Below the pieces are notes generated by a model. It ran no database searches. It was not told the origin of the DNA and saw only the letters and a list, made by a program, of their open reading frames with translations. A stretch of DNA of 63,986 nt, the filler included, from Stramenopiles sp. TOSAG23-2 (lineage: Eukaryota): the NCBI GenBank assembly GCA_900128395.1. It is 3 parts of 3 records of this genome, joined end to end, with 100 filler letters (N's around TTAATTAATTAA, not from the genome) between each part and the next. Parts side by side here need not be neighbours in the genome. Positions count along the whole stretch, not along the records: positions 21,707 to 43,299 come from LT649536.1; 2 more parts are not named here. One strand, 5' to 3'. Shown here in pieces: positions 21,607-50,895 of the stretch. The translations under genes were made by a program, and so were the position numbers. Positions within the stretch are counted from its first letter, which is position 1. Every line of letters begins with the position of its first letter.

Positions 21607-21706
21607 NNNNNNNNNNNNNNNNNNNNNNNNNNNNNNNNNNNNNNNNNNNNTTAATTAATTAANNNNNNNNNNNNNNNNNNNNNNNNNNNNNNNNNNNNNN
21701 NNNNNN
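21607..21706. other. Artificial scaffold spacer (N44 + TTAATTAATTAA six-frame stop + N44)
   Basis: Exactly 100 nt; same construct at 43300-43399. Confidence 0.98.
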
Positions 21707-27569: not shown

Positions 27570-30500
27570 ATGAAACATTGTTACTTTTACATAATTTGGA
27601 TCATGGCAACATCGTTTATTGTTGTGACACCTGTAAGCGGCCGCTGCAGAGATGGTGGTATGCGAAACGTGAGAAACGGAGGAGGTTGTAGTTGCAGCCC
27701 GTCACAATGCAGAAGAGATTGGACTGTAAGCGCTGGTGGCGACAATGGTTATGACGAATGCTGTGGTTGTGACATTAGTTGTGAGGCTATGACGAAATTG
27801 ATTAACAACGCAAAGAACATAGCGAACGCTGCTCACAAAACAGCGAACGCTGCTCACAACACAGCGAACAAAGCAAAGACCACAGCGAACAAAGCAAAGA
27901 CCACAGCTGAGGAAGCCGGAAGAAAAGCTGGAGAAGCCAAAAAAACAGCTGTGGAATCCGAAAGAAAAGCTGGAGAAGCCAAAAAAACAGCCACTACAGC
28001 ACAGTCAACAGCAAAGGCGGCGAAAGATAGTGCTGGAGAAGCCAAAAAAACAGCCACTACAGCACAGTCAACAGCAAAGGCGGCAAAAGATAGTGCTGGA
28101 GAAGCCAAAATAACAGCAAAGGCGGCGAAAGATAGTGCTGGAGAAGCCAAAACAACAGCCACTACAGCACGGTCAACAGCAAAGGCGGCAAAAGATAGTG
28201 CCACTACAGCAAAGAAAACAGCTGCGGAAGCCGGAGGAAAAGCTGGAGAAGCCCATAAATCAGCTGGAGAAGCCAAAACAACAGCCTCTACAGCACAGTC
28301 AGCAGCAAACGAGGCGAAAAAAAGAGCTGGAGAAGCCCATAAATCAGCCACGACAGCACAGGAATCAGCATCTACAGCACATAAATCAGCTGGAGAAGCC
28401 CATAAATTAGCCACTACAGCACAGAAAACAGCCATCACAGCTCAGTCAACAGCAAAGGCGGCGAAAGTTAGTGCCAGTACAGCACAGGAAACAGCAAAGG
28501 CGGCAAAAGATAGTGCCGCTACAGCAAAGAAAACAGCTGCGGAAGCCGTAGGAAAAGCTGGAGAAGCCCATAAATCAGCTGGAGAAGCCAAAACAACAGC
28601 CTCTACAGCTCAGTCAGCAGCAAACGAGGCGAAAAAAAGAGCTGGAGAAGCCCATAAATCAGCCACGACAGCACAGGAATCAGCATCTACAGCACATAAA
28701 TCAGCTGGAGAAGCCCATAAATTAGCCACTACAGCACAGAAAACAGCCATCACAGCTCAGTCAACAGCAAAGGCGGCGAAAGTTAGTGCCAGTACAGCAC
28801 AGGAAACAGCAAAGGCGGCAAAAGATAGTGCCGCTACAGCAAAGAAAACAGCTGCGGAAGCCGTAGGAAAAGCTGGAGAAGCCCATAAATCAGCTGGAGA
28901 AGCCAAAACAACAGCCTCTACAGCTCAGTCAGCAGCAAACGAGGCGAAAAAAAGAGCTGGAGAAGCCCATAAATCAGCCACGACAGCACAGTCAACAGCC
29001 ACCACAGCACAAAAAACAGCCACTACAGCAAAGTCAACCGCAAGCAAGGCTCACTCATTGGCTAGTACAGCACAGAAAATAGCCGGAGAAGCAAAAGATG
29101 GAGCGGAACGTGTAAAAGAAAGTGTTCAAATTACAAAAGCAAGTGTGGAAAAGTTGAAAGAAACAGCTGATAATAAAATCAAAGAGTTAAAAGAAAGTAC
29201 TAATACTCACGTCACAGAAATCAAAACTAAACTGGATGAACAAAAGGAAAAAACAAACGATTTATCGATTAAAAATTCACGTTTATGGCAAAAAGAACAA
29301 ATACGTTTACAACATGATACGACGATGCAACATCGTAAAACCAAAGATAATACAAATGAAAAATCATCATGTAAAAGTGAACGTACAAAAGGTACAATTA
29401 TATTTCCTGCAATTGAAATTTCAAATGAAATTGAAGACAAAGAAGATACAACATGTATTGATACCAACCGTGATGAATTATTAAAATCATTTTGTTCCTT
29501 TAGAATGGATTTAGACAATTTATTTAAAATACAAAGTATTAAAAAAGAAGCAAAAACATTTTGGCCTAATATATGTTGTAAAGAACGTAATGGTAATGAT
29601 ATTTCCAAAACATTAGAATCGTGCAAACCACCTGAAGGTAGTGATATTAAACCTGAAAACATGATACCATTTGCTTTATCACAAGGTGGACATTACAATC
29701 GTCATAATTTATATGTGGAAGTGACGGAGGCCATTAAGGAGAATGGATATTTACATGAAGGCATGGAAAAGTTGCTCGATTCGTTTCCATCATCTATGGA
29801 TATAAAAAAAGAAAAAGCAAAAGAAAAGGTTGGCAAGTTCTTTAATGAGGTCTCATTATGCGGCCCACGTATTGTGGATGCTCCGGGAAACAATGAAAAT
29901 AAATTATGTGAATTGTTTGTTCCTTATAAACATGCAATGAGAAACTTTTACAATTTAATTAAAAGTTTGTATATCAAACCAATGAAAATCCAATCAGCAT
30001 TTTTTTTAGAAACCATGGAGCGTTCGCTGCGTAAACGTTCGGAAACGAAACGTGTAGGAAAAAGCAATATACAAAATATAATGCAAATGAAACCTAAAAC
30101 CACTGCAGAAGCAACATGCACGGGCGGTTCCAAATGGACGTCTTCGGAACTAAAAGAGAAAAAGCAAGACTTTTGTCTTGGTTACAACCATTTAGATTTA
30201 AGCGATACCAACATTAAAAACGTTGCGATACATTATTTGAAACACGATATATCGTACGATGATAAGAAAATGTTTGAGTTGTCTGAGCAATTGCGTTACG
30301 AGGTAACAGACAGTTCCTGTCCCGCACCATTGTTCACTGCGAATGATATTTCGATTCAACAAGTCGGGATGGATGTATTAGGAAAAGAAAAAGAATGGGT
30401 AGCAGTTGTTAATTTGAATACCCAGGATAAAGATGGTTATTTACAAAGTGAGTTGCCACATTGCGAAGATCGAAAATATTTAATTGGTGCTAAAGTAGTA

Positions 30501-30722
30501 GTGAAAGCATATGTAGATGACAGAAATTGTTGTAAAACGATGAAAGACTCAACAAAATGTGAAGATTTATGCGGAAAGCCATTGAGAAGATTGAACGATA
30601 CTGACCACAAACATTATTCCAAAGACGTGGTGTTGACGGGAACGCATTACGAGGTAAAAAATCCACATGATGTGAGAAGGAGGAGGCGGTTGTTGAAGGA
30701 TCGCAACAGTCACTTGTGTTAA
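27570..30722 (+). CDS. Secreted fibre-like protein: signal peptide, Cys-rich head, Ala/Thr/Lys heptad stalk, Cys-rich C-terminal domain, RRRRLL motif
   Basis: 1050-aa ORF; hydrophobic N-terminus; about 430 aa of 7-aa repeats such as AGEAKKT, ATTAQST, AKAAKDS. Confidence 0.88.
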   Translation: MKHCYFYIIWIMATSFIVVTPVSGRCRDGGMRNVRNGGGCSCSPSQCRRDWTVSAGGDNGYDECCGCDISCEAMTKLINNAKNIANAAHKTANAAHNTANKAKTTANKAKTTAEEAGRKAGEAKKTAVESERKAGEAKKTATTAQSTAKAAKDSAGEAKKTATTAQSTAKAAKDSAGEAKITAKAAKDSAGEAKTTATTARSTAKAAKDSATTAKKTAAEAGGKAGEAHKSAGEAKTTASTAQSAANEAKKRAGEAHKSATTAQESASTAHKSAGEAHKLATTAQKTAITAQSTAKAAKVSASTAQETAKAAKDSAATAKKTAAEAVGKAGEAHKSAGEAKTTASTAQSAANEAKKRAGEAHKSATTAQESASTAHKSAGEAHKLATTAQKTAITAQSTAKAAKVSASTAQETAKAAKDSAATAKKTAAEAVGKAGEAHKSAGEAKTTASTAQSAANEAKKRAGEAHKSATTAQSTATTAQKTATTAKSTASKAHSLASTAQKIAGEAKDGAERVKESVQITKASVEKLKETADNKIKELKESTNTHVTEIKTKLDEQKEKTNDLSIKNSRLWQKEQIRLQHDTTMQHRKTKDNTNEKSSCKSERTKGTIIFPAIEISNEIEDKEDTTCIDTNRDELLKSFCSFRMDLDNLFKIQSIKKEAKTFWPNICCKERNGNDISKTLESCKPPEGSDIKPENMIPFALSQGGHYNRHNLYVEVTEAIKENGYLHEGMEKLLDSFPSSMDIKKEKAKEKVGKFFNEVSLCGPRIVDAPGNNENKLCELFVPYKHAMRNFYNLIKSLYIKPMKIQSAFFLETMERSLRKRSETKRVGKSNIQNIMQMKPKTTAEATCTGGSKWTSSELKEKKQDFCLGYNHLDLSDTNIKNVAIHYLKHDISYDDKKMFELSEQLRYEVTDSSCPAPLFTANDISIQQVGMDVLGKEKEWVAVVNLNTQDKDGYLQSELPHCEDRKYLIGAKVVVKAYVDDRNCCKTMKDSTKCEDLCGKPLRRLNDTDHKHYSKDVVLTGTHYEVKNPHDVRRRRRLLKDRNSHLC
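27805..29100 (+). repeat. Coding minisatellite of 21-nt modules with a 315-bp higher-order repeat
   Basis: AAAGATAGTG at 28191, 28506 and 28821 (period 315 = 15 x 21); GCTGGAGAAGCC recurs throughout. Confidence 0.92.
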
Positions 30723-38010: not shown

Positions 38011-41000
38011 ATGTTGCGTAGATATATTATTAACAATTATGGAGTTGCCCCCCCCCAAAAAGTAAAAACAGTTTTAAAACATTTCGCAAGTGTTCATTTT
38101 TCTTCCACAACAACAACTGGTGGGGATGACGGTGATGGGGAGGATAATAATAACAATAATAATAATAGTGATAGTGAAGATAATAATAATATTAACGACG
38201 ATGATGACGTTGGAACAACAATCGATACTACACAAGAAAGTGTGACAGGCGTAGCACGGCGCGGGTTTGAACCATTGAATACATTGAAAATTTTGAAAAC
38301 TGCATCAAAAGCTGTTGCAAATAAGCATAAAGATAAGCAAGATGCTATATTGCGTTATCGTATGAATATTAAAGACGAAGATTTAGGTGATATACGTAGA
38401 ATGTTTGAACAACGTAGGCTATTAAGAGATGTGCAAAAGAGCAATGAATTAGGCGATGAGGAAATGATGGACGTGGACGATGAGCAGCCTGAATGGGTCA
38501 TTGAGGACGAAAACTACAATTATCCTCCCACCGGCTTTTCCCCAACTGATGTTGAAACATTGTATAAATTTTTACATCCATCCGGTAAAATCATGCCAAG
38601 GTATCAAACAAAATTAAGGGCAAAACATCAACGCAAATTAGCAAAAGCGGTCAAAGCGGCGAGACAAATGGGGTTAATACCCACGACATATGCGTTGCCA
38701 AAACATTTGCAAGAAAAATTTGTACCAGAGGCACTATATGCGCGTGCTCAAACGATGACAAAAAGAGAAAAAACAGATATACGCAACAAGAAAAAAAAAG
38801 AAAGAAAAAAATTAAGATCATTGGAGAATAGGAAAATAATATTAAATGAAAATGAGTTACCAAGTGTTTTAGTTTCTGGTGGCCCTTATTTATTTCACAA
38901 TAGCATGGAAGGTATTGGTACATACGTTGAACGTGTAAAAGATGGGGAGGATTATGAAATATCATTAAGAGGTTCTAACGATAATATCGAAAGAATCTTG
39001 GAAAAGGTCGAACATCGTAAACAAAATTTAATTACAGAGACATTGGAGTTTCCAAAAGAACTTGCAATACCAATTATTGGAAAGAAAGGAGCGAATTTAA
39101 GACGATTTGGGCAAGATCATGGAGTATATTTAAAATTAAAGAGTGATACGAGCGGTGAAGGCAACTTTGATAATTTAAAAGTAGAAATGATTGGTTTGCA
39201 AGAAGAAGTTGAGTTTGCTAGCGAGGCTATGAAAATATTTGTAAAGGATCCAAGCATCGTACGACCTTTTCGTTGGAGGTATGAATATTTGCTACATAAT
39301 CATTTTTCATCGGAAATTGGCAAAATCAATGCCATGTGCAGTGAATTTAAAGGACATGTCGTCTTTAAAGATGGGACAGTATTATGCTATGTTGACAAAA
39401 TGAACCCTTTCAGTAAGAAGAAAAGCAAAGATACCATGGCAAAGGCAATACGTACATTTGCATCGGAAAAGTTGATACGTTTACCAATTAATAGTAGTGC
39501 TGTTCCAGACTGGTTGCAGCCTTTGTTTGGGGATACAAATGGAAATAAAAATGCATTTTTATTGAAGAAATATTTGATGCAAAATTATAACGTCACATTA
39601 TATGACAGTAACGAGGACGACGACGATGAGGATGGAAGATACTGGGTAGTAGGTCTTGATGACAATGATACAAGGCAATTTCAAAGTGATTTTTTAAGAT
39701 TAATTGGAAATTCATTTGTAATTGATAATAGTGTCTTGCCACGTGTTCTTGGTCAAGTTAAAAAAATCCAAGATACCACCAACACATTTATCCAGTTTTT
39801 GTACAAAGATTCCACTAAGAAGGAAAATGTATGCTTAATTATTGGAAGTGATGATAATGTAAATAATGCAAAAGATTTAATTGAAAAAATTAGTAGCCGT
39901 GATAGTTTCGAAAAGGAAGCAGGTGTTCAACAGACAATGTTAAAAATTCGAGAAGATATGAAATATGATTGGAGTATTGCAAATGAATTTATCAATTGTT
40001 CTGTACAGAGTGGAAACAGTGACGATGAAGTTGCAGTATTTTATGATACTGATGAAAGCTTGCAACGATTAGAAGATTATATTCAAAAACGAAATTTACA
40101 TGTTGATGGTAGTAATGATGTAGAATTTGTTGAAGATGAAATATATTTACCAAGCATTATTGTACCTCAAATTTCTGGGAAAGGTCAAAAAAATTTAAGA
40201 TGTCTTCGTTTTTTCACCGGTGCAAATATATCATTAAGCGATGCTGGCTTAAAGTTTCAAGGGCCAAAAGAACAAGTGGAGGAAGCTGTAAGACTTACTC
40301 GTTCTAAAATAGAAGCCATATCCCAGCAAGCCACTGACAAACCGACTGATGTTTATGAATTTCCAGTAGCAGCTGTTCCAGTATTTATGCAAAAAGACAA
40401 AAGGAATGCCATGAATGAATTCACACGCATTTCTGCAGAGACTGGAACTTTATTGCAATTTAAACAGGAAGGTTTAGATTTACGTAAAAAAACCCTTTTG
40501 ATTTTTGGCACTCCAGCACAATGTAAAGTGGCCAAACAACGATGTGTTGATGTGGTGGATTCAATAAATATAGAATCGGTCACAGTGCAATTAAATAAAT
40601 ATACAAGCGATGGTGTTGATACGGACACGATTACGGATGGAGTGTTTGATAATTTACATAATTTTCAAGTGCGTTCAAATGCAGCACTTATTGTTAGAAG
40701 TGATACAGTAGAAATACACGGCGATGAAAGATACATCGATAAAGGTGTTGCAGTATTAGGAGAGATAATTGACACATTTAAAGATAAGGAAACGCAAATG
40801 ATTACCATCCCAGAAAACAGAATTTCTGAAATTATTGGCGGAGGTGGTAAAAACATTCGTCGATTGAAAAAGATATCAGGATGCAGCGGAATTCAAATTC
40901 ATGACGAAAGAACTGTTGGTGTGGAGGAAGGATTTAAACAAGTTGAATTTACTGGAAAAAGGTACCAAACGGAAATTGCCATTGACCAGTTGTTTCAAGA

Positions 41001-41583
41001 CCTAGAATTTGCAGATAGAAGATATTCCACTATTACTCGTAATGTAGATAATAAAGATTTGCAATTACTATTGCAAGACGATGGTGAATTTTTAAGAAAC
41101 TTAATTATAATATGCGGGATTAAGATGTCAATAAAAGAGGAAGAAACGCTTACTGGTAGAGATTCAAGCAGGGTTGAATTTAAAGGTTTCGGCTCGAATC
41201 TTTATAAAGCATTAAGCTTAATTGAAAAATATGTTAAAACAGGAGAAAGACCAGAGTTTTTTGAAATGAAATATACTATAAAAAAGAACAAATTAAGTCA
41301 AGTTTTAGGCGTTCCAGGCTTAAAGAATATTGGCAACAACGCACAAAGTACAATCCCAGGACATTTGAAACATTTGAAAATGGTAGAGAGAAATAGTCTT
41401 GCGTTGTTTAAAAGCTTATCAAAGCGTCGTTATGGCGTTGTTGATTTAACAATTGTTGGAACGAAAGAGGAAATTAGTAAAGCAAGACAATTATTAGACC
41501 CGGATCAAGTTGCATTGTTTGAAATTCAAGAAGAATGGCTTGAACGTGAAAAAATGGGGGTGCAGGCAGCATCATATTCTTAA
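38011..41583 (+). CDS. Ribosomal bS18 domain fused to a multi-KH-domain array, with a predicted mitochondrial targeting peptide
   Basis: DVETLYKFLHPSGKIMPRYQTKLRAKHQRKLAKAVKAARQMGLIP (bS18); KH motifs IIGKKGANLRR, ISGKGQKNLR, IIGGGGKNIRRL plus degenerate copies; MLRRY... basic, acid-free N-terminus. Confidence 0.88.
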   Translation: MLRRYIINNYGVAPPQKVKTVLKHFASVHFSSTTTTGGDDGDGEDNNNNNNNSDSEDNNNINDDDDVGTTIDTTQESVTGVARRGFEPLNTLKILKTASKAVANKHKDKQDAILRYRMNIKDEDLGDIRRMFEQRRLLRDVQKSNELGDEEMMDVDDEQPEWVIEDENYNYPPTGFSPTDVETLYKFLHPSGKIMPRYQTKLRAKHQRKLAKAVKAARQMGLIPTTYALPKHLQEKFVPEALYARAQTMTKREKTDIRNKKKKERKKLRSLENRKIILNENELPSVLVSGGPYLFHNSMEGIGTYVERVKDGEDYEISLRGSNDNIERILEKVEHRKQNLITETLEFPKELAIPIIGKKGANLRRFGQDHGVYLKLKSDTSGEGNFDNLKVEMIGLQEEVEFASEAMKIFVKDPSIVRPFRWRYEYLLHNHFSSEIGKINAMCSEFKGHVVFKDGTVLCYVDKMNPFSKKKSKDTMAKAIRTFASEKLIRLPINSSAVPDWLQPLFGDTNGNKNAFLLKKYLMQNYNVTLYDSNEDDDDEDGRYWVVGLDDNDTRQFQSDFLRLIGNSFVIDNSVLPRVLGQVKKIQDTTNTFIQFLYKDSTKKENVCLIIGSDDNVNNAKDLIEKISSRDSFEKEAGVQQTMLKIREDMKYDWSIANEFINCSVQSGNSDDEVAVFYDTDESLQRLEDYIQKRNLHVDGSNDVEFVEDEIYLPSIIVPQISGKGQKNLRCLRFFTGANISLSDAGLKFQGPKEQVEEAVRLTRSKIEAISQQATDKPTDVYEFPVAAVPVFMQKDKRNAMNEFTRISAETGTLLQFKQEGLDLRKKTLLIFGTPAQCKVAKQRCVDVVDSINIESVTVQLNKYTSDGVDTDTITDGVFDNLHNFQVRSNAALIVRSDTVEIHGDERYIDKGVAVLGEIIDTFKDKETQMITIPENRISEIIGGGGKNIRRLKKISGCSGIQIHDERTVGVEEGFKQVEFTGKRYQTEIAIDQLFQDLEFADRRYSTITRNVDNKDLQLLLQDDGEFLRNLIIICGIKMSIKEEETLTGRDSSRVEFKGFGSNLYKALSLIEKYVKTGERPEFFEMKYTIKKNKLSQVLGVPGLKNIGNNAQSTIPGHLKHLKMVERNSLALFKSLSKRRYGVVDLTIVGTKEEISKARQLLDPDQVALFEIQEEWLEREKMGVQAASYS

Positions 41584-41944: not shown

Positions 41945-42972
41945 ATGTCGTCAATGGTAACGAATCCGCCACATGCGAAACGACAACGTACGTTGTTACA
42001 ACCGGCAACCATCGAAGCGTTACAAGAAGAACGTGCGGAACCTATTGAAATTGGTATATTAGTTTTACCAGCTGGATTTGAGTCTGCCTGCGGGATAATG
42101 ACAAAAATACTTCTACATTTAGATATTCGATCATTATGTAATGTTAAACGATCTTCTTTAATACAACAATGTAGAAAAGCATTTGGATGTGATGATTTTG
42201 AACGTGTACGTGATGAAGCCTTAAGTATTGATTATAAAGGTAGAAGAAGTATAAATGAGATGAGACTTTCACATCCAGCGAGAAGACTTTATTTATTAAT
42301 TGAAAGATATCAAAGAGAGTTTCCACGTGGTACTTATCACAGAGGTCGAATACCAACACCTATCGTATGTGCATGTCAACACGGACGTACGAATGATGTA
42401 GAATTATTTATGAATCTTCATACTTATCACAAGTATATTACTAATTGTGATGTGAATGGCTACAGAGATGATATGACATTGAAAGATATGGTGAGTCAAG
42501 TCGGTAAAACTAGTGAAGGTTATGATCGTACACCTTTTACCGAGATGATATGACATTGAAAGATATGGTGAGTCAAGTCGGTAAAGATAGTTATGGTGGT
42601 GAATGGACACCTTTAATGATAGCTGCATTGAAAGAACATTTCCAAGTAGTTAAATATTTAATTGAACAAGGTGAAGCTGATCCTAATGCAACTAGTTATT
42701 ATGGAATGAATGCATTACATTATGCAGCAGGTTGGAACAGAACGTATACTAATTTGATTCAGCTCTTGTTGAATAATATGTCTCTTGATAGTATTAACCA
42801 AGAAAACAACGTTGGAGAAACTCCGTTAGACTATTGTTATGGTGAGAATGATAGTCCAAATCGCCAAGAAATCATTGCACTTTTACGTTCAAAAGGTGGA
42901 ATTGCAAATGATTATGATGAAAATGGTAATGAAATAGATTCAGAAGATGAAGATGATTACGAAGATTACTAA
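41945..42972 (+). pseudogene. F-box-like + ankyrin-repeat gene split by a 77-bp internal duplication (pseudogene, or rescued by splicing)
   Basis: KILLHLDIRSLCNV (F-box-like); TPIVCACQHG, TPLMIAALKEHFQVVKYLIEQGEADPN, NALHYAA, GETPLD; GAGATGATATGACATTGAAAGATATGGTGAGTCAAGTCGGTAAA at 42465 and 42542. Confidence 0.75.
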
Positions 42973-43299: not shown

Positions 43300-43399
43300 N
43301 NNNNNNNNNNNNNNNNNNNNNNNNNNNNNNNNNNNNNNNNNNNTTAATTAATTAANNNNNNNNNNNNNNNNNNNNNNNNNNNNNNNNNNNNNNNNNNNN
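43300..43399. other. Artificial scaffold spacer (N44 + TTAATTAATTAA + N44)
   Basis: Identical to 21607-21706. Confidence 0.98.
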
Positions 43400-50635: not shown

Positions 50636-50895
50636 TATTCCTGAAATATCAATTTACATATTTATCAACATAAAAATATCCATAAAAAGGTGCAAAAATG
50701 TTGGATTTTTTACAAAAAATGCTCTGTAGACTTGCAAGCATAAGATTCTATTTAAAATAGTGGAATATTCCTGAAATATCAATTTACATATTTATCAACA
50801 TAAAAATATCCATAAAAAGGTGCAAAAATGTTGGATTTTTTACAAAAAATGCTCTGTAGACTTGCAAGCATAAGATTCTATTTAAAATAGTGGAA
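50636..50895. repeat. Perfect 130-bp intergenic tandem duplication (50636-50765 / 50766-50895)
   Basis: TATTCCTGAAATATCAATTTAC...TTTAAAATAGTGGAA is read twice. Confidence 0.95.

Follow-up and report, generated by a model that had tools for sequence, protein, structure and literature searches.

Gene-conversion mosaics and cassette-based antigenic variation are known from the MHC, plant R genes, pilE/pilS and vlsE. Introns are said to have been gained through tandem duplication of segments containing AGGT (Rogers 1989; Hellsten et al. 2011), and expanded families of ubiquitin-ligase substrate adaptors (F-box, BTB) have reportedly been under positive selection in nematodes and plants (Thomas 2006). 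For these expanded F-box and BTB adaptor families, positive selection is also described in PMC8120010. DARPin libraries hold a repeat framework constant and vary beta-turn and first-helix positions in each repeat. In genome assemblies, two haplotypes or paralogs can be retained side by side as false (heterotype) duplications (Ko et al. 2022, PMC9516828). The cases described are mostly of kilobase length, in vertebrate genomes assembled from long reads or scaffolded. Here we describe a 77-nt head-to-tail repeat in an ankyrin gene of Stramenopiles sp. TOSAG23-2, which we read, with about even confidence, as an assembly join of two alleles or paralogs. The locus resembles such false duplications in that its adjacent copies differ where alleles or paralogs differ, and in its gene break, which would be spurious and lies in repeated sequence close to the end of a contig. 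It departs from them in its unit of 77 nt.

The window, the whole stretch of 63,986 nt that was analysed, consists of three separate contigs, so that adjacency across its linkers is meaningless. Both linkers (21607-21706 and 43300-43399) consist of TTAATTAATTAA, which has stops in all six frames, between two stretches of 44 N. With a G+C content of 30-37%, the window comes from a compact, AT-rich marine protist. Apart from the ankyrin gene it encodes ordinary products of a cellular eukaryote in long frames without interruption, namely a cathepsin, kinases, a class II aminoacyl-tRNA synthetase, a mitochondrial carrier, a polycystin, a CH-domain protein and an M16 peptidase. The window contains one member of the ankyrin family only, arranged as follows:

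41945..42553, plus strand: first ORF, 202 aa, with the family N-terminal domain, a degenerate ankyrin-like repeat and unit 1, its stop lying in unit 2 (ORF call, 306 relatives)
42550..42972, plus strand: second ORF, 140 aa, in another frame, with most of unit 2, three ankyrin repeats and an acidic tail (ORF call, Pfam)
43300..43399, no strand: N44-TTAATTAATTAA-N44 linker after the contig end (direct reading)

The contig ends 327 nt past the stop codon of the gene, which lies within 0.8 kb of that end. The first ORF, whose stop is a TGA inside unit 2, matches no Pfam family at E ≤ 0.01. The second matches Ank_2 (E 3.8e-18) and Ank (E 3.3e-16), with positions 3-31 of the Ank model on residues 19-48. 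Outside the repeat both gene halves are clean ORFs, and deletion of either unit in silico yields one open frame of 316 codons. The upstream neighbour (38011-41583) encodes a 1190-aa protein in which a ribosomal protein S18 domain (residues 179-223) is combined with several KH domains, an unusual fusion. Elsewhere on the same contig, a 1050-aa ORF (27570-30722) consists largely of nested 21/42/63/105/315-nt repeats; its 315-nt period recurs at 2.7 copies with 97% identity, and its Pfam match is an alanine-zipper family.

A repeat search and Tandem Repeats Finder both place the 77-nt repeat at the break between the two ORFs, with these parts:

42461..42537, plus strand: repeat unit 1 (77 nt), carrying core 1 (Tandem Repeats Finder, alignment)
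42538..42614, plus strand: repeat unit 2 (77 nt), carrying core 2 (Tandem Repeats Finder, alignment)
42465..42508, plus strand: exact 44-nt block, copy 1, coding for DDMTLKDMVSQVGK (exact match, relatives' DNA)
42542..42585, plus strand: exact 44-nt block, copy 2 (exact match)
42509..42529, plus strand: core 1, hairpin version TSEGYDR (direct reading)
42586..42606, plus strand: core 2, hairpin version DSYGGEW, identical in DNA to the core of the relative L003 (direct reading, comparison with L003)

The repeat has exactly 2.0 copies, identical at 67 of 77 positions (87%), and the junction between them at 42537/42538 is blunt, with 0 nt of microhomology. The two block copies match each other with a blastn E of 1.7e-20 within the window. 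One of the ten mismatches, at unit position 4 (A at 42464, C at 42541), is synonymous, AGA and CGA both coding for Arg; the other nine fall inside the 21-nt core (42509-42529 versus 42586-42606). Finding at least nine of ten mismatches within some 21-nt stretch has a probability of 0.0003 (200,000 permutations). Alignment and direct reading thus agree with the original prediction, made from the sequence, that an identical 44-nt block occurs twice and is followed by TSEGYDR in one copy and DSYGGEW in the other. It had also been right that 77 nt shifts the frame (77 = 3 × 25 + 2), and this shift is what divides the gene into two ORFs. The further contrast that it drew, between TSEGYDR-TPF and DSYGGEW-TPL, holds for the cores but not for TPF and TPL, as both units end in ACACCTTT; the Phe/Leu difference is a junction effect, the third base of the codon being a T supplied by unit 2 or an A supplied by the sequence downstream.

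To place the core on the protein fold, we used an AlphaFold2 model, built with a 64-sequence alignment, of the protein encoded by L001, a close single-copy relative, and not of the window's broken gene. The model has a mean pLDDT of 69.5, with values of 89-97 over residues 180-300 and below 50 for residues 1-108. It shows three helix pairs (197-203/207-215, 231-238/244-251 and 268-275/281-290), forming helix-turn-helix repeats that are linked by beta-hairpins and carry a TPLH-type motif at the start of helix 1, as in ankyrin proteins. The core forms a beta-hairpin (strands 187-188 and 194-195, pLDDT 89-96) immediately before the TPL helix 197-203, so the assignment of the core to an ankyrin beta-hairpin loop is borne out on the model of L001. 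The 77-nt segment accordingly codes for a loop and the beta-hairpin that leads into the first canonical ankyrin repeat.

Several hundred public proteins of ∼315 aa (305-317 residues in typical members) make up the family of this gene; they combine a conserved N-terminal domain with three ankyrin repeats. The first ORF as a query returned 306 relatives of similar length (the best 88-90% identical) and ten longer ones, and the second ORF returned 375 longer relatives (the best 76% identical). Pfam detects ankyrin repeats in all 64 aligned family members. A search of the PDB with the family profile returned ankyrin-1, DARPins and others with E values down to 4e-49, many DARPin chains being among the best matches; these matches are confined to the ankyrin part, and the N-terminal domain has no PDB match in this search. 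F-box-like matches are found in 20 of 64 relatives (best E 0.0065, Pfam cut-off not applied) and F-box matches in 6 of 64, and a possible F-box identity of the N-terminal domain is a weak lead from these profile matches. One narrow literature search found no published description of this family as hypervariable F-box/ankyrin. Like the F-box and BTB adaptor families, this is a large, lineage-specific family that joins a conserved N-terminal module to a variable binding module; unlike them, its variable module is ankyrin, the F-box is a weak lead, and the host is a compact, AT-rich marine protist.

We next asked how the segment is arranged in these relatives. Among 194 family proteins, the M-x-L-K...G motif of the segment is present once in 130, twice in 4 and lacking in 60, many of which are truncated. 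In the four two-motif proteins the motifs lie 91-223 residues apart, in whole-module or whole-gene repeats, and none of the 134 motif-bearing relatives has two motifs ∼26 residues apart. The DNA relatives L001, L002, L003 and L005 are single-copy at the 77-nt segment, and relatives are colinear and uninterrupted, with no intron, across it. One family protein, P0010 (360 aa, on a 2107-nt contig), carries two to three diverged in-frame copies of HKYITNRDVNGYR.DM.LK ahead of a normal hairpin, and this duplication of the same region looks real, and older. A 525-aa relative (L004, 825-2402) has three in-frame loop-hairpin-ankyrin modules with the cores DSNGDES, TSNGDES and DTEGYEW, which puts module duplication within the family's repertoire. 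The same longest contig recurs within each of the sets P0026/P0087/P0096, P0071/P0101, P0048/P0085 and P0042/P0080 (16724, 17150, 4773 and 11983 nt, respectively); these proteins are probably encoded on shared contigs, the family then often occurring in local clusters in related genomes. The C-terminal tails of P0036, P0060, P0075 and P0106 (e.g. ...SLIHISEPTRPY and ...CLLYTSPSPRDL...) resemble translated sequencing adaptor, and the public contigs that carry them seem to end in untrimmed adaptor.

Could the gene be functional as it stands, its frame restored by a small intron (42504-42544 or 42504-42586) or by recoding? Both stretches have GT at the start and AG at the end, and removal of either restores the frame. 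The 41-nt GTAAAA...GAG stretch of the original prediction (42504-42544) exists and acts on the frame as described, but an intron is not supported: the family architecture would be lost, the 41-nt version repeating 12 residues and the 83-nt version dropping a conserved Gly-Lys. Of the 98 GT/GC..AG pairs that would restore the frame, none has a length of 77 nt and none gives the family architecture, and the relatives run uninterrupted through the segment. Of four other window ORFs that were looked up, three, all of them on the third contig, have exact public protein matches in an unbroken frame, and most of the window is taken up by long ORFs. The best Rfam match (E 0.13) is below the gathering score, and the predicted fold is not unusual (z = -0.40). 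RNA contigs have no joint at the candidate-intron places, where locus-specific cover is nil; RNA depth over 42515-42596 is 0 and 0 in run X15 and 12 and 26 in run X16. The only RNA joint observed runs from 42514 to 42607 and has 18 letters of other sequence in the middle; it represents a paralog transcript with an 8-residue core and is neutral on the junction. The locus is like AGGT-based intron gain in being a short tandem duplication within an exon, and unlike it in that the 44-nt block contains no AGGT and no GT-AG pair excises one unit. We consider a functional gene at this locus extremely improbable.

Comparison of the family members revealed where they vary. From 80 proteins of 295-330 aa we kept 74, dropping six with less than 55% identity to the ruler sequence in the N-terminal domain, and calculated mean column entropies of 0.63 bits for the N-terminal domain, 0.64 bits for the block, 1.96 bits for the core and 0.97 bits for the rest. 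The 30 most variable columns include 189/191/193/195/200/203/204, 225/227/229/234/237/238 and 262-264/266/271/274/275/277, which are hairpin and first-helix positions in each of the three repeats. The family conserves Ser190 and Gly192, and both window cores keep them. We counted 120 distinct cores in 129 proteins; neither core 1 nor core 2 occurs among them in exact form, the closest family core to core 1 being RSEGYDR in P0040. Constant flanks around a hypervariable core, the pattern that the original prediction proposed to look for in paralogs, are thus seen throughout the family.

At the DNA level, the 44-nt block has 1-3 nt differences in L001, L002 and L005, which are themselves 81-83% identical to the window upstream of the repeat. 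A codon analysis on a small sample (four sequences, 6 pairs, 12-codon windows) gave a pS of 0.00-0.09 for the block, with values of up to 0.66 in other gene parts, a pS of 0.09 and a pN of 0.25 for the core, and a pS of 0.04-0.06 and a pN of 0.22-0.24 for a patch in repeat 2. These values suggest a framework nearly frozen even at synonymous sites, with fast-changing binding positions. An excess of non-synonymous over synonymous change at binding patches is also a property of the F-box and BTB adaptor families. With DARPin libraries the family shares the constant repeat framework and the variation at beta-turn and first-helix positions per repeat; it differs from them in being natural and germline-encoded, with several hundred genes, and in having an N-terminal domain besides the repeats. 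Its hairpin is two residues longer than that of the DARPin consensus.

The distribution of the differences between the two units bears on their origin. All nine core mismatches are located in the hypervariable codons 189, 191, 193 and 195 or next to them, and the conserved codons are unchanged. Drift would not have spared conserved codons, because the gene is frame-shifted, and the units are thus two pre-existing family versions that were already different when juxtaposed. That the flanks match exactly and the hairpin codons alone differ would follow from a family framework that is almost identical in DNA. On these grounds the two units would be different, individually normal functional versions, alleles or paralogs, laid head to tail. 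The original prediction had argued against a plain recent duplication, and rightly so, as the cores differ at codons that are hypervariable in the family and keep the Ser and the Gly. Duplication followed by drift was likewise rejected, given the clustering of the mismatches (P = 0.0003) and the conserved codons kept in a frame-shifted gene. Mutagenic copying of the diversity-generating-retroelement type was tried as well and discarded: the mismatches are not restricted to adenine, with A at 3 of 9 positions in unit 1 and 2 of 9 in unit 2 and all four bases represented.

A two-step origin, in which a plain 77-nt tandem duplication arose and one core was then overwritten by a short gene-conversion patch from a paralog, would account for unit flanks that are identical save for one synonymous A/C, and patch conversion of exactly this region is known in the family (see below). 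It calls, however, for two rare events in a gene otherwise free of decay; a minimal patch would leave out the A/C difference at unit position 4, which is 44 nt from the core; and one juxtaposition of two versions accounts for all ten differences together. We judge the two-step route to be quite improbable.

Two relatives define tracts of sharp-bordered identity with the window:

42573..42687, plus strand: 115-nt exact patch in common with L003, comprising the block end, core 2, the TPLMIAALK codons and the repeat-1 framework (DNA comparison)
42724..42969, plus strand: 3' part of the gene, nearly identical to L001, with exact runs of 120 and 125 nt (DNA comparison)

L003 is a 45-kb metagenome contig with a 244-aa gene that has a different N-terminus; the overall identity of this gene to the window is 66% at the protein level and 80% at the DNA level (over 389 nt). 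Across the 61 informative nt of the patch, mismatches number 0 in L003 and 12, 10 and 12 in L001, L002 and L005, which are closer to the window overall. Because L003 was found via the peptide KDSYGGEW its identical core is ascertained; this bias does not extend to the other hypervariable codons and the silent sites that are identical too. L001 is 88-98% identical to the window in the 3' flank to about 43200 and ∼83% in the N-terminal part. The dS against L001 is 0.46, 0.29 and 0.06 in successive thirds of the N-terminal part and 0.13-0.20 from the block through the core to repeat 1; over the final 83 codons it is 0. The divergence from L001 is mosaic. Identity tracts with sharp borders in otherwise divergent genes, as in gene-conversion mosaics, are therefore seen with both L003 and L001.

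With one clear patch and the four-sequence codon analysis as its evidence base, patch-wise exchange of binding loops in the family appears to be real. Identical cores in different backgrounds may offer a further lead: there are 7 such pairs, 6 of them with a downstream identity of ≤0.73, by an ungapped and crude measure in which about one chance collision is expected. The family is like the MHC, R-gene, pilE/pilS and vlsE mosaics in its near-identical flanks and swapped variable patches, the 115-nt patch lying in a ∼70-80% background; it is unlike the pilE/pilS and vlsE cassettes in that no expression site, silent cassette array or programmed mechanism is seen. The original prediction of a patch copied from a paralog is supported for the family, by the patch in common with L003, but not for the tandem as a working cassette device, since the frame is broken and none of the motif-bearing relatives has the tandem form.

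In L003 (1000-3389), the family member has as neighbours another ankyrin gene, an ORF without a known family and a D12-class N6-adenine DNA methyltransferase (PF02086, E 1.4e-45). This setting is unusual for a protist nuclear gene and might point to an element of viral or foreign origin; a further neighbour, of 312 aa, is similar to amine oxidases and is uninformative on a viral origin. The upstream neighbour of L001 is a CRAL-TRIO gene that is absent from the window, which is not decisive.

Given such exchange, the repeat could be real and the product of one templated insertion in the cell. A break upstream of the segment would be followed by invasion in the near-identical framework of a paralog or of the other allele, from which 77 nt would be copied by synthesis through the block, core 1 and ACACCTTT; the copied end would then be joined bluntly to the other break end. 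The product would be a very young frame-shifted pseudogene, possibly just a polymorphic allele, and pseudogenes are usual in large, fast-evolving families. The exact 115 nt in common with L003 and the mosaic against L001 speak for this route, as does the framework block, the would-be homology, which is nearly invariant in DNA. P0010 indicates that duplications of this very segment do occur in the family, and graph assemblers do not themselves create junction words. Against it, the junction is found in no independent sequence among metagenome and genome contigs, the split ORFs are found in no public protein set, the form is absent from all the motif-bearing relatives, and RNA contigs give no locus-specific cover. 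The route also needs a rare hybrid repair, whereas the three blunt two-copy repeats described below suggest a systematic technical cause. We rate templated insertion as the main rival of an assembly join, though less likely than it.

The assembly chimera of paralogs or alleles that the original prediction had named as its own undoing is the leading explanation, with chances that we put at about even. Two overlapping contig ends from two alleles or paralogs would have been concatenated while the draft sequence was built, their 87%-identical overlap being left unmerged, and the living genome would have an ordinary single-copy gene of ∼316 codons at the locus. The same 64 kb contain two other two-copy repeats, at 434-701 (period 134) and 50636-50895 (period 130), both 100% identical, with 2.0 copies and no microhomology. 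One technical cause, unmerged overlapping ends, would explain all three blunt two-copy repeats. The repeat at 434-701 overlaps the 3' end of a 1855-aa minus-strand ORF, and that at 50636-50895 is intergenic. An assembly join is further favoured because both gene halves are clean ORFs and removal of either unit restores the frame, because the tandem form occurs in 0 of 134 relatives with L001, L002, L003 and L005 all single-copy, and because the gene lies near a contig end and belongs to a family that is shattered by short-read graphs.

We searched public sequence collections for the junction and for its presumptive parents. Logan contig pieces at the locus are 47-149 nt long among the matches listed (8 per run of about 800). 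In DNA run X1, one contig follows the window (with an identity of 95% or more) up to 42537 and then continues with AATGGCAGCTGCA and not with unit 2; another three read ...CGTACACCTTTAATGGCAGCTGCAAGAGGC before they return to the window sequence at 42634. These contigs indicate that a single-copy gene with a core-1-like hairpin end exists, as one parent of a join would look. The core-2 patch occurs in a single-copy context in L003; the X1 contig and L003 may each represent another locus than the window's. None of the contig pieces listed bridges or contradicts 42537/42538, family-wide depth being in the thousands versus ∼10-20 for the locus. The joints from 42492 to 42776 (run X1) and from 42569 to 42776 (run X3) look like an L001-type paralog and are neutral on the junction.

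A 25-mer spanning the junction has 0 matches in metagenome contigs and 0 in genome contigs, and the block-plus-gap patterns have 0 matches in viral contigs and 0 in genome contigs. In viral contigs, 32-mers of core 1 and core 2 have 0 matches, and of 66 pattern matches to the family profile 0 were confirmed. Of the two split ORFs, none of four versions occurs among ∼15 billion public proteins, whereas three of four other window proteins are present there, on 4, 4 and 15 contigs. The absence of the junction and of the split ORFs is weak evidence, because the intact form of the paralog is also not found publicly, its best N-terminal match being 90-92% identical and its best C-terminal match 76%.

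Several observations weigh against an assembly join. A de Bruijn assembler cannot invent junction words, so that a later step (scaffolding, gap closing or contig merging) would be needed. The family is truly mosaic, which makes a product of recombination in the cell plausible. P0010 carries diverged in-frame duplications of the same segment. The dS against L001 shows no change-point at the unit junction, which is not decisive on a chimera. A whole-genome-amplification chimera, considered as a separate cause, is a poor fit to a blunt direct join: in PMC1855051, 85% of amplification chimeras are inverted, direct joins of less than 10 kb make up 11 of 475, and ∼77% have at least 2 bp of complementarity.

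If the tandem is an assembly join, its importance is practical only, the gene being misannotated as two fragments or as a pseudogene; with three in 64 kb, the assembly probably contains more blunt two-copy repeats. A broader reading would make the tandem a genuine by-product of swaps of hairpin-plus-repeat-1 cassettes among several hundred paralogs, through homology arms frozen at synonymous sites, in a germline, DARPin-like binding repertoire of a unicellular marine eukaryote, made up of what are perhaps ubiquitin-ligase adaptors; we think this unlikely. The specific tandem is of low interest, and the binder-library-like family behind it is moderately interesting. Several hundred close ankyrin genes with a near-invariant framework occur in a compact marine protist lineage, their variation falls at the canonical binding positions of three repeats, and a hairpin patch has passed between divergent members at least once. 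The family has, in nature, the architecture of an engineered binder library, and what its proteins may recognise is worth asking.
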